Of a stretch of DNA of 39,482 nt, positions 1,962-4,296 are shown piece after piece. The number at the start of each line of letters is the position of its first letter. Position 1 is the first letter of the stretch. The position numbers and the translations under genes are program-made. This DNA comes from an uncultured Candidatus Saccharibacteria bacterium (lineage in GTDB: Bacteria > Patescibacteriota > Minisyncoccia > Minisyncoccales > UBA1441): assembly GCA_964386365.1 (NCBI GenBank), contig CAYLQR010000027.1:1-39482 (forward strand). Reading direction: 5' to 3'. Below the pieces are notes generated by a model. That model was not told where the DNA came from and did no database searches. It saw nothing but the letters and a program-made list of their open reading frames with translations.

Positions 1962-2241
1962 TAATGTAAAATTACATCGGGGCGCCATGACAGTAATGTC
2001 ATCCAAAAAATCTGGCTTATAACGGTGAACTCCATATGGTATAGATAAACCCATGCTATATGGACAATACCGTGGGAAGTTTAACCCAAGACTAAAAATT
2101 GGGTTATAACCCCGTAGAGACTTGATTCTTTTAAGAATCAGAGTTCTCCTAAAAAGAGAGCTAATACGCCAGCTCCCGACTGAATGTCGGGATGAAGATA
2201 TAGTCCGATCCTCTTGGTAACAAGAGAAAAATGCCGACTGG
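1962..2241 (+). ncRNA. Group I intron (IA3-like), no ORF, at 23S position L2500
   Basis: Splits GGCACCT^CGATGTCGGCTC; the exon ends in U and the intron ends in G. The guide ACATCGGGGCGCC pairs with the 5' exon (P1) and with the 3' exon CGATGT (P10). Core motifs: AATACCGTGGGAAG, CCCGTAGAGACT, TACGCCAG, GAAGATATAGTCC, plus two hairpins (P7.1/P7.2) after P7. Confidence 0.93.
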
Positions 2242-2334
2242 CGATGTCGGCTCAAGTTATCCTGGAGCTGGAGAAGGTTCCAAGGGTTCGGCTGTTCGCC
2301 GATTAAAAACTTACGCGAGCTGGGTTTAAACCGT

Positions 2335-3028
2335 CAAATTGGCGGCTTTCCCGAGCAATCGGGATTGAAAAAGTTGACTCATATCGATGAATTCCTTACA
2401 TACTTGTAACACAACCTGTCGTATGTTAGGATAATATCGAGGGAAGTTGATTATGTCTAAGATTATATCCGTAACTAAGAGAGCATATTTAGCAGGTTTT
2501 CTTGATGGAGATGGAAGTATCTATGTGAGATTAAAACCAAATTCGAGTTATAAATATGGTTTTCAAATTTCTCCATATATAGTATTTTTCCAATCAGCGA
2601 AATCAGTCAAGAACTTCAAGAAAGTTTGCGCTCTAATAAATTGCGGATACATCCGTAAACGAAAAGATGGTATATTAGAATATACTATTGGTAGAAAAGA
2701 CGAAATCATAAAATTTCTAGAATTAATCAAACCATACTTGATCTTAAAGAAAAAACAGGCTGATTTAATGATCAGAATAATAGAACAGAAAAATAAAGTA
2801 AAAAGTAGAAATGACTTTAATAAGTTAGCACGATTGATAGATAGATTTCGAGAACTAAACTACTCTAAAAAGCGTAAAAGACATAATTTAACCCCGTAGA
2901 GACTGATCCTTAAATGGAGAGAGTGATTCATATTAAAGAATTGCTAATACGTCAACCCCCTATGAAACAGGAAAAACTTCATGGGGTGATGGTATAGTCC
3001 ATACACTTAGTAATAAGTGAGAAATATG
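2335..3028 (+). mobile_element. Group I intron (IA3-like) at 23S position L2593 with a homing endonuclease ORF
   Basis: Splits AAACCGT^CGCGAGACAGG. P1 CCGTCA/TGGCGG has U.G at the splice site and the intron ends in G. Core motifs: AATATCGAGGGAAG, CCCGTAGAGACT, TACGTCAAC, GGTATAGTCC. Same site as the I-CreI intron. Confidence 0.94.
2453..2899 (+). CDS. Single-motif LAGLIDADG homing endonuclease (I-CreI-like)
   Basis: AYLAGFLDGDGSI motif, FFQS, LILKKKQA; ~148 aa; lies in intron loop L6. ATG at 2453 is preferred over TTG at 2447. Confidence 0.93.
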   Translation: MSKIISVTKRAYLAGFLDGDGSIYVRLKPNSSYKYGFQISPYIVFFQSAKSVKNFKKVCALINCGYIRKRKDGILEYTIGRKDEIIKFLELIKPYLILKKKQADLMIRIIEQKNKVKSRNDFNKLARLIDRFRELNYSKKRKRHNLTP

Positions 3029-3090
3029 CGCGAGACAGGTTGGTCTCTATCTACCGCAGGCGTCGAGTCTTGAAAGAAGTCATCCCTAGT

Positions 3091-3898
3091 AAGAAAATTG
3101 CTACTTCATGGAGCAATCCATGATGACAATCTGACTAATAACGATGAAGCCTTCATTATTTATTTGGTTGCAGAGATTGTAAACTTTGACGGTCCAAAGA
3201 TTTTACGATACAATTCGCTTGAGGACCAAATAAATATTAAGGGAATATCGTGGGAAGACTCATAAAAAATTTACAAGATGTTGATTTAGCTTACATCTCT
3301 GGATTTCTTGATGGCGATGGAAGTATCATGGTCCAAGTCAAGAAAAACAGGGATCGAAAGAATGGTTGGCGTTTAATGTTCACTATCTGTTTTTATCAGG
3401 ATAGTCGACATGAAAAACCGCTTTTCTGGATTCAAAAAAAACTAGATATAGGATATATTTCTAGGCGAAATGATGGCATGACCGAGTTGAGAATTAATGG
3501 ATATAGAAGAACGAGAGAAATTCTAGAAGCATTACATCCCTACATCAAGTTTAAAAAGAAACAGGTAAAATACGTTTTGAAGATTCTAAGTATTCTGGAG
3601 CCTTATAAAGGATTGTCCGGGCTCAAGAAAAATGACAGAGTCGCCATAGCTAAAGCCATTTTAGCTGCTAGACAAGAAACGTATCAATCTGGGTCTAAAA
3701 GAATGGAAAAGCTGAAAGCTGACTTGAAAAAAATTGTAGAAATGTAAATTTTTATGTGTCCCCGTAACGACTTTTTCTAAACTTGCCAAAGTTTAAGTTT
3801 AGAAAGGATGGTGGTTAAAACCCATCATAATACGTCAGCTCCTGCTAAAAGCAGGATGAAGATATAGTCTGAACCCGTAGAAATATGGGAAAAATTTG
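3091..3898 (+). mobile_element. Group I intron (IA3-like) at 23S position L2656 (sarcin-ricin loop) with a homing endonuclease ORF
   Basis: Splits CCCTAGT^ACGAGAGGACCGG. P1 TAGTAA-GAAAA-TTGCTA has U.G at the splice site; terminal G at 3898. Core motifs: CTGAC..TACGTCAG (P3), AATATCGTGGGAAG, CCCGTAACGACT, GAAGATATAGTCT. Confidence 0.92.
3250..3747 (+). CDS. Single-motif LAGLIDADG homing endonuclease
   Basis: AYISGFLDGDGSI motif, CFYQD, PYIKFKKKQV; 165 aa. The GTG start lies within the intron core, so the start is uncertain. Confidence 0.92.
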   Translation: MGRLIKNLQDVDLAYISGFLDGDGSIMVQVKKNRDRKNGWRLMFTICFYQDSRHEKPLFWIQKKLDIGYISRRNDGMTELRINGYRRTREILEALHPYIKFKKKQVKYVLKILSILEPYKGLSGLKKNDRVAIAKAILAARQETYQSGSKRMEKLKADLKKIVEM

Positions 3899-4178
3899 AC
3901 GAGAGGACCGGGATGAACTAACCTCTGGTGTACCAGTTGTTCCGCCAGGAGCATTGCTGGGTAGCTATGTTGGGCAGGGATAAGCGCTGAAAGCATCTAA
4001 AGTGCGAAGCCCTTCTTAAGATTAGGACTCATTAGATTCCTGGAAGATTACCAGGTTGATAGGCCTCAAGTGTAAGTGCTGCAAGGCATTTAGCTGAGAG
4101 GTACTAATATCTAACTTTTCTAATTTTCTTATTGGCTAGTAATTAGCAATTATCAATCCCCAGAGAAGCAAAAGTGCG

Positions 4179-4296
4179 CTCTGGTGGCGGCTAAACCGGA
4201 GTTGTCCCACCTGATCCCATTCCGAACTCAGTCGTGAAATACTCCCGGGCTGATGATAGTGGTTCATCCGCGAAAGTAAGACGCCGCCACCAGAGC
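4179..4296 (+). rRNA. rrf: 5S rRNA
   Basis: CCACCTGATCCCATTCCGAACTCAG..GTGAAA, GATGATAGT, GCGAAAGTA; terminal helix CTCTGGTGGCGG/CCGCCACCAGAG. Ends approximate. Confidence 0.93.

Follow-up and report, generated by a model that had tools for sequence, protein, structure and literature searches.

What occupies the sarcin-ricin loop of the 23S rRNA gene at the start of contig CAYLQR010000027.1, and can the protein encoded there cut the DNA of that same loop? The contig, which in its full length of 39,482 nucleotides is referred to below as the window, belongs to assembly GCA_964386365.1 of an uncultured Candidatus Saccharibacteria bacterium, a member of the candidate phyla radiation (CPR) or Patescibacteria. 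The initial annotation of this DNA predicted a LAGLIDADG endonuclease, encoded by an open reading frame (ORF) at 3250-3747, that would cut sarcin-ricin-loop DNA. Our analysis indicates that positions 3091-3898 are very probably a mobile group I intron carrying a homing endonuclease gene, inserted after U2656 in the single 23S rRNA gene of this bacterium. The kind of element, its host group and its exact site are already in print, and the site-2656 element is unexceptional within its catalogued class; it leaves the understanding of how such elements work unchanged. Its interest lies in the colonization by a mobile intron, in CPR bacteria, of the loop through which the ribosome contacts the elongation-factor GTPases. 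To the existing catalogue we add the exact splice sites, the location of the ORF within P6 and of its start within P4, a conserved target block and the stages of decay. In practical terms the protein is a candidate meganuclease scaffold with a target in nearly every genome.

Position of the intron in the 23S rRNA gene

All rRNA positions follow Escherichia coli 23S numbering, with the E. coli 23S sequence at L026:344-3247 as reference. Rfam searches and alignment to E. coli identify the first 4.1 kb of the window as the 3' four-fifths of a bacterial 23S rRNA gene, downstream of which Rfam places a 5S rRNA at 4183-4292. In the E. coli 23S sequence AGTACGAGAGGACC starts at 2654, and BLAST aligns window position 3899 to E. 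coli 2657; in the same comparison the exon stops at T3090 (U2656) and restarts at A3899 (A2657), leaving an insert of 808 nt in the sarcin-ricin loop. Without the intron the allele reads ...GTCATCCCTAGT|ACGAGAGGACCG..., the point of insertion being between GT and AC, and the earlier statement that the intron bisects a GTAC is borne out by this alignment. One A at the junction can be assigned to either side, and the junction is fixed after U2656 by the group I end rules together with a P1 helix containing a U3090-G3100 wobble. The insert is the third of three introns in this gene; each of the upstream exons ends in T and each insert ends in G.

The exons on either side are well-defined rRNA. 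The upstream one ends in ...CCCTAGT, which supplies the 5' strand of helix 95 along with the opening bases of the loop, and is identical at 51 of 62 positions to the same exon of G410, an intron-less genome of the same family. The 3' exon is matched by the Rfam LSU_rRNA_bacteria model (3876-4113, 168.7 bits, model positions 2652-2912) and by BLAST to E. coli 2657-2884. The genome to which the window belongs (G000; 424,771 bases in 37 contigs, estimated completeness 96%) has a single rRNA operon with at least three introns in its 23S gene. A search of this genome recovered one copy of ACGAGAGGACC and zero uninterrupted sites; since its sole copy of the site is already interrupted, the host is expected to be immune to the enzyme.

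The intron-encoded protein

The predicted protein has a single match to the Pfam LAGLIDADG_1 model (PF00961), over residues 16-109 at 53.1 bits (cut-off 23.1; E 6.3e-14), and is therefore a single-motif protein. With the frame uninterrupted from 3250 to 3747, the description of an intact 165-aa single-motif LAGLIDADG ORF is upheld. The ORF is not a chance reading frame, because 2111 database proteins, among 2252 candidates, match it at E <= 1e-3; among the 120 matches listed identities range from 55 to 97% and lengths from 140 to 183 aa, and the few named relatives are Nealsonbacteria, Parcubacteria, Paceibacterota or Patescibacteria.

We aligned the protein with 48 of these 120 matches, 55-83% identical to it. 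In all 49 sequences Y15, I16, G18, F19, L20, D21, G22, D23 and G24 of the motif are invariant, as are Q50, K102 and ten residues of the sheet (Q29, K31, R41, M43, T45, R73, D75, E79, R81 and N83). D23 aligns to the second D of VDGDGS in I-CreI-derived chains, making it the counterpart of the residue that we take to be D20 of I-CreI, and Q50 and K102 align to the positions that are presumably Q47 and K98 of that enzyme. Since neither the catalytic motif nor the sheet residues turned towards the DNA vary among the 49 relatives, the enzyme is probably intact and active. Against a relative of about 97% identity in a lake DNA run, 14 of the 17 ORF differences listed are synonymous and 3 non-synonymous. 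Taken together, these patterns point to an ORF that is under purifying selection and retains an intact active site.

The closest natural relatives of solved structure are, by sequence, I-CvuI (E 2.5e-14), I-CreI (about 5e-12) and I-MsoI (about 3e-10). An AlphaFold2 (AF2) model built from the 49-sequence alignment (pLDDT 88.9, pTM 0.84) contains helices at residues 10-23, 56-65 and 85-98 and strands at 24-32, 40-51, 69-72 and 77-83, and has the alpha-beta-beta-alpha-beta-beta-alpha order of the LAGLIDADG core. Foldseek searches with this model recovered the same three enzymes at the top, namely I-CvuI (E 1.3e-11, TM 0.71), I-CreI (TM 0.77) and I-MsoI (TM 0.79), with a probability of 1.00; the top matches span TM scores of 0.70-0.79 and identities of 23-30%. 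The single-domain architecture, considered alongside the cross-linking of the CPR enzyme I-ShaI as a dimer (PMC11270868), suggests that the protein acts as a homodimer, which in enzymes of the I-CreI class is held together by the LAGLIDADG helices.

Relatives and the homing cycle

In species-representative genomes, all 25 loci encoding relatives of the enzyme have G|ACGAGAGGAC about 130-200 nt past the protein match, and an uninterrupted loop was found at none of them. The element appears to belong to a large family that is restricted to this position of the rRNA. The loci lie almost all in genome bins of CPR/Patescibacteria, with two otherwise labelled. One relative is found in a bin labelled WS2 (L011, MWBO01000044.1), and another in a bin labelled Gammaproteobacteria (L025, CAZSSJ010000021.1). 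The 3' exon of the latter shares 79.5% identity over 127 nt with the window but 72% with E. coli, which makes its label doubtful, and the locus counts for little as an indication that the family extends beyond the CPR. A tblastn search against 50,697 phage records gave no match.

The distribution within the order of the window's host was surveyed in 61 genomes, in which the lack of both states often reflects an unassembled rRNA. The uninterrupted site is present in 34 of them, including G410, the only genome of the same family; its empty site differs from the intron-less allele of the window at -12, -7 and +14 only (counted from the insertion site), and the genome is also without the 2593 intron. 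The 3' signature of the intron was recovered in six, G000 included, and a reversed control pattern in none. G432 is the one genome among the 61 with both, an uninterrupted loop and the 3' signature lying on separate contigs (C21 and C34), which may reflect two rRNA copies, a mixture of strains or a binning artefact.

Two further versions of the intron were recovered. L032 (G176:C21, about 1511-1856) is an ORF-less version of 346 nt. L058 (G226:C1, reverse strand, about 99-556 of the reverse complement), in a genome of the same order, is a 458-nt intron at the same site, with an ORF remnant of 50 codons that comprises 35 N-terminal residues and a short tail and carries D21N in the motif. By all appearances this remnant is a decaying homing endonuclease gene. 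Homing elements pass through a cycle of gain, decay and loss, and the four states recovered here (complete element, intron with a decayed ORF, intron without an ORF, empty site) match the stages that such a cycle predicts.

Counts of short junction strings proved less informative. The 12-mer DGACGAGAGGAC is present in 72 of 401 genomes of the phylum, a figure not usable as a frequency, as 9 of the 30 loci examined were 23S junctions (L031 duplicating L019) and the others tRNA 3' ends or coding sequence. Separately, the 12-mer GGACGAGAGGAC recurs at apparent tRNA 3' ends (TGGTGCGGACGAGAGGACTTGAACC) in many CPR genomes (L034-L036, L040-L048 and L051), and is therefore a source of false matches in searches with the loop sequence.

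The target site

The sequence flanking the insertion was compared in 27 rows from occupied hosts with both boundaries, two pairs of which are identical. Positions -6, -4 to +10, +13 and +17 are invariant, the invariance of -4 to -1 and +1 to +10 being partly forced by the motifs of the boundary search, and -5, -7 to -12, +11, +12 and +14 to +16 are variable. The pairing of helix 95 is kept nonetheless, with six of six pairs in 25 of the 27 rows. The resulting conserved block, -6 to +13, is centred on +4 (A2660) and not on the insertion site.

In 22-bp frames the number of palindromic pairs out of 11 is five when centred at GT|AC, six at -1, five at +4 and three at +3, against a random expectation of 2.75. 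The flanks are therefore weakly palindromic, as had been noted initially, but no frame stands out, and the outer matching positions mostly vary between hosts. Because palindromy is weak in every frame and the outer matches fall at host-variable positions, GTAC as the central four bases of the enzyme's site can be taken only as an assumption. Thus the bisection of GTAC by the intron stands, but its role as the centre of cleavage does not follow from it.

At least as likely, judging from the conservation pattern, is a cut centre 3-4 bp downstream of the insertion site. Under this alternative, which competes with the GTAC centre alone and to which we would assign slightly less than an even chance, the 22-bp site would have CGAG or GAGA as its central four bases, and nearly the whole footprint would lie within invariant rDNA. 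It accounts for the position of the conserved block in the occupied hosts, whereas a frame centred on GT|AC places six variable positions in one half-site; it also fits invariant DNA-facing sheet residues to an invariant target, and has a precedent in I-CreI, which cuts a few bp 3' of its own intron insertion site. These points are tempered by the fact that the bases whose invariance is partly forced by the search motifs are universal anyway. Moreover, palindromy is no better at the displaced centres than at the insertion site, and the dyad of helix 95 falls on a base rather than between bases.

The native sites of some orthologues coincide with the corresponding site of the E. coli rrl gene, from -12 to +15 for host L039 and from -10 to +17 for host L023; the window's own site differs from that of E. 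coli at -11 to -7, +14 and +15. The enzymes of the site-2656 family would then naturally home into an E. coli-type site. As some native sites equal the E. coli site, cutting of very diverse rDNA, as first proposed, is plausible, but it is not a special property, being known for rDNA homing endonucleases; for the same reason expression in E. coli may be toxic.

More generally, the family could represent a meganuclease lineage with the natural recognition block C-N-TAGT|ACGAGAGGAC-Y-N-G (-6 to +13), an asymmetric site read by a homodimer, which homes across very distant hosts. We consider the case for this evenly balanced. If it is true, the family would read one invariant half-site tightly and tolerate the variable strand of helix 95, and it would be expected to cut most bacterial, and possibly archaeal and eukaryotic, rDNA in vitro. 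Its natural specificity would then be a new one, and the family would serve as a useful example of how a symmetric enzyme can recognize an asymmetric site.

Structure of the intron and its probable splicing

For analysis of the RNA fold, 26 introns with both boundaries were collected and the ORF was trimmed from each by script; the three without the anchor motif CC[CT]CGTA[ATC]CGAC, present in the other 23, were dropped and one identical row was removed, leaving 22 distinct introns. RNAalifold recovers P1, P2, P3, P4, P5, P6, P8 and P9 from this alignment, with compensatory pairs in P2, P3, P5, P6, P8 and P9. At least two standard pair types occur at six of six pairs in P2 and at four of five in P3, and P6 covaries at 3258/3759 (AU 8, UA 13, GC 1) and 3259/3758 (CG 18, UA 3, UG 1). 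P1 shows no variation at its four exon-side pairs and retains its two intron-side pairs in 20-21 of the 22 sequences; the pairing is also seen in the Rfam alignment of L032. The ends conform to the group I rules, with U3090-G3100 in all 22 sequences and G3898 as the last base of the intron. From the group I consensus, P7 would be formed by GACU (3769-3772) with AGUC (3866-3869), and the AAGAUAUAGUC element that includes the latter is also found in L2656 introns of other genomes.

The ORF is intimately embedded in this structure. Its body occupies the loop of P6, and its GTG lies within the 3' strand of P4 (3246-3251). A TAAGG or TAAGA sequence occurs in those ORF-bearing introns that were compared but not in L032, which has no ORF, and the corresponding AAGGGA of the window probably acts as the ribosome-binding site. 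L032 itself should be useful as a minimal ribozyme from which a covariance model for introns of this class could be built.

Contigs from two lake metatranscriptomes and two DNA runs were compared with the window. In one metatranscriptome contig, X9 (depth 41.8), 3090 is followed exactly by 3899, with omission of 808 bases; the shorter side of the join has 40 bases, and the single ambiguous base is accounted for by the A that can belong to either side. Neither of the two DNA runs contained this join. X9 differs from the window at 3082 and is therefore from a relative. Contigs over 3111-3771 in the RNA libraries (depth about 2-4) come from a relative of about 97% identity and show presence in the library, not transcription. 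Depth in the metatranscriptomes was rejected as a measure of expression, since exon depths sum over all organisms and are not comparable to the depth of the intron. A further join, 2333 to 3028 (22 bases on the shorter side), was also set aside, as it does not match the boundary of intron 2 to the exact base and is probably derived from another organism.

Several observations weigh against the interpretation of this locus as a mobile group I intron with an active homing endonuclease. The match to the Rfam group I model RF00028 is partial (3767-3890, 30.4 bits, E 2.7e-5) and below the gathering score of 50, and L032, which matches over model positions 1-253, likewise falls below it (34.9 bits, E 2.1e-7). 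P7 and the exon-side pairs of P1 are invariant and so gain no support from covariation. X9 could be spliced rRNA or the rRNA of an intron-less relative, and RNA libraries can also hold DNA, making it a weak hint of splicing. As the GTG, itself a predicted start, lies within the P4 helix, translation and folding of the ribozyme may compete. Finally, with at most six of 11 palindromic pairs, the target is strongly asymmetric for a homodimer, which is unusual though not disqualifying.

The mobile group I intron remains by a wide measure the reading that we favour, and the following mechanism can be proposed for it. The ribozyme core (P1-P9) would splice the intron from the pre-rRNA, restoring an intact loop in the ribosome, as suggested by covariation and the one RNA contig. 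The P6 loop would supply the enzyme, a single-domain LAGLIDADG_1 protein of 165 aa that belongs to the I-CreI structural class. If it behaves like other members of that class, it would bind as a homodimer across the insertion site, to about 20-22 bp of rDNA free of the intron, and cut both strands to leave 4-nt 3' overhangs. Repair off the intron-bearing copy would then copy intron and ORF into the empty site, and the host would be spared, its only copy being interrupted already.

Alternative roles of the protein

LAGLIDADG proteins also include maturases, and the protein might no longer be a nuclease but a splicing helper of this kind or an inactive relic. The overlap of the ORF start with the ribozyme core at P4/P6 and the existence of relatives with a decayed ORF, as in G226, would be compatible with such a role. 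Yet we regard it as improbable, in view of the invariance in all 49 sequences of both acidic residues of the motif, of the equivalents of I-CreI Q47 and K98 and of the sheet residues that face DNA in this fold class. Furthermore, L032 keeps the same core without an ORF, so the intron is not obviously dependent on the protein, and a patchy distribution, in which close relatives have empty sites, is consistent with homing that is still under way.

The suggestion that the enzyme is delivered by an episymbiont bacterium to cut the rDNA of its host cell could draw on the very widely shared target core and on the E. coli-type native sites of L039 and L023, but is very improbable: no result points to export, the N-terminus (MGRLIKNLQDVD...) has by eye no hydrophobic signal-like stretch, the gene lies inside an rRNA intron and not beside secretion genes, and ordinary homing suffices to account for the fidelity to one site, the empty sites, the stages of decay and the immunity of the host.

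Comparison with known elements

Tsurumaki et al. (2024, J Bacteriol; PMC11270868) surveyed 348 CPR 23S genes and named 14 recurrent insertion sites, with LAGLIDADG_1 predominant at 1917, 1931, 1952, 2593, 2604 and 2657 (23IS6-8 and 23IS12-14); group I introns at 23IS14 were described as previously unreported in known bacteria. The element of the window belongs to the 23IS14 class as defined there, being a group-I-like intron at position 2657 (the base after U2656) with a LAGLIDADG_1 protein in a CPR genome; host group, gene, position, Pfam family and single-domain protein are all the same. The study is a catalogue, and the sections considered here do not contain an anatomy, target analysis or assay for this site; the one enzyme assayed, I-ShaI at 23IS7, cut its own and a related site in addition to being cross-linked as a dimer (PMC11270868). 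Our literature search found no other paper on an intron in the sarcin-ricin loop and no report of an enzyme for a sarcin-ricin-loop DNA target. The initial idea of a new meganuclease specificity consequently survives as regards the enzyme, for which this target is absent from the literature found, but not as regards the site and its LAGLIDADG_1 ORFs, already catalogued as 23IS14. Among other surveys, Nawrocki (2018; PMC6125680) lists archaeal large-subunit sites at 2593, 2500, 1931 and 1923, and the strings 2655-2657 are absent from its main text; a paper on I-MG11 (PMC13748971) mentions a 23S target, the site of which is not specified in the relevant passages.

Of the characterized enzymes, the closest in kind are I-CreI, I-MsoI and I-CvuI, which have the same fold, size, single motif and catalytic positions, and are likewise encoded in a group I intron of a large rRNA gene at a conserved functional centre, in their case position 2593 of the chloroplast 23S rRNA. 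They differ from the site-2656 enzyme in sequence (23-30% identity) and in target, that at 2656 in helix 95 being more asymmetric; the enzyme of intron 2 of the window (2447-2899) is a far closer relative of I-CreI. I-CeuI, a homodimeric LAGLIDADG enzyme of 23S position 1923, cuts the rrl genes of many bacteria. Its rDNA target resembles that at 2656 in being conserved far beyond the natural host, but differs in site and sequence. In architecture the element also recalls the td intron of phage T4, in which the I-TevI ORF lies in the P6 loop of a group I intron. There too the ORF loops out from P6 and begins near the ribozyme core, but I-TevI is a GIY-YIG enzyme and its intron resides in a protein-coding gene.

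Other features of the locus

The coordinates of the intron, its structural elements and the neighboring parts of the 23S rRNA gene are collected in Table 1.

Table 1. Features of the interrupted 23S rRNA gene (window coordinates)
Feature	Position	Strand	Remarks
Intron 1	1962-2241	+	280 nt after U2500; no ORF; Rfam RF00028 64.3 bits, above cut-off
Intron 2	2335-3028	+	694 nt after U2593; group I-like; ORF 2447-2899
23S exon between introns 2 and 3	3029..3090	+	62 nt; E. coli 2594-2656 by alignment
Probable group I intron 3	3091..3898	+	808 nt; last base G3898
P1 hairpin with 5' splice site	3087..3103	+	UAGUAA (3087-3092) pairs with UUGCUA (3098-3103)
Shine-Dalgarno-like AAGGGA	3239..3244	+	6 nt upstream of GTG; overlaps in-frame TAA (3238-3240) and P5 3' strand
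LAGLIDADG_1 homing endonuclease ORF (predicted)	3250..3747	+	165 aa; GTG start, TAA stop; uninterrupted
P6 5' strand (GGG..GACUC)	3252..3261	+	pairs with 3756-3763
Codons Y15-S25 (YISGFLDGDGS)	3292..3324	+	end of LAGLIDADG helix with putative catalytic acidic D23
P6 3' strand, J6/7 and proposed P7 5' strand	3756..3772	+	P6 3756-3763; GACU 3769-3772; within conserved CCCCGUAACGACU
J8/7 and P7 3' strand, AAGAUAUAGUC	3859..3869	+	most conserved group I core element; fits RF00028 consensus
23S 3' exon	3899..4113	+	E. coli 2657 to end; starts ACGAGAGGACC, remainder of sarcin-ricin loop

The Rfam match of intron 2 is weak and covers the 3' core alone (2879-3020, 19.8 bits, E 0.04). Its ORF encodes a 150-aa LAGLIDADG_1 protein at U2593, the site of I-CreI and I-MsoI; the protein matches I-CreI chains with an E value of 1.8e-21 and is 33% identical to the site-2656 enzyme. 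The genome that harbors these introns is, at the size given above, very small even among CPR bacteria.

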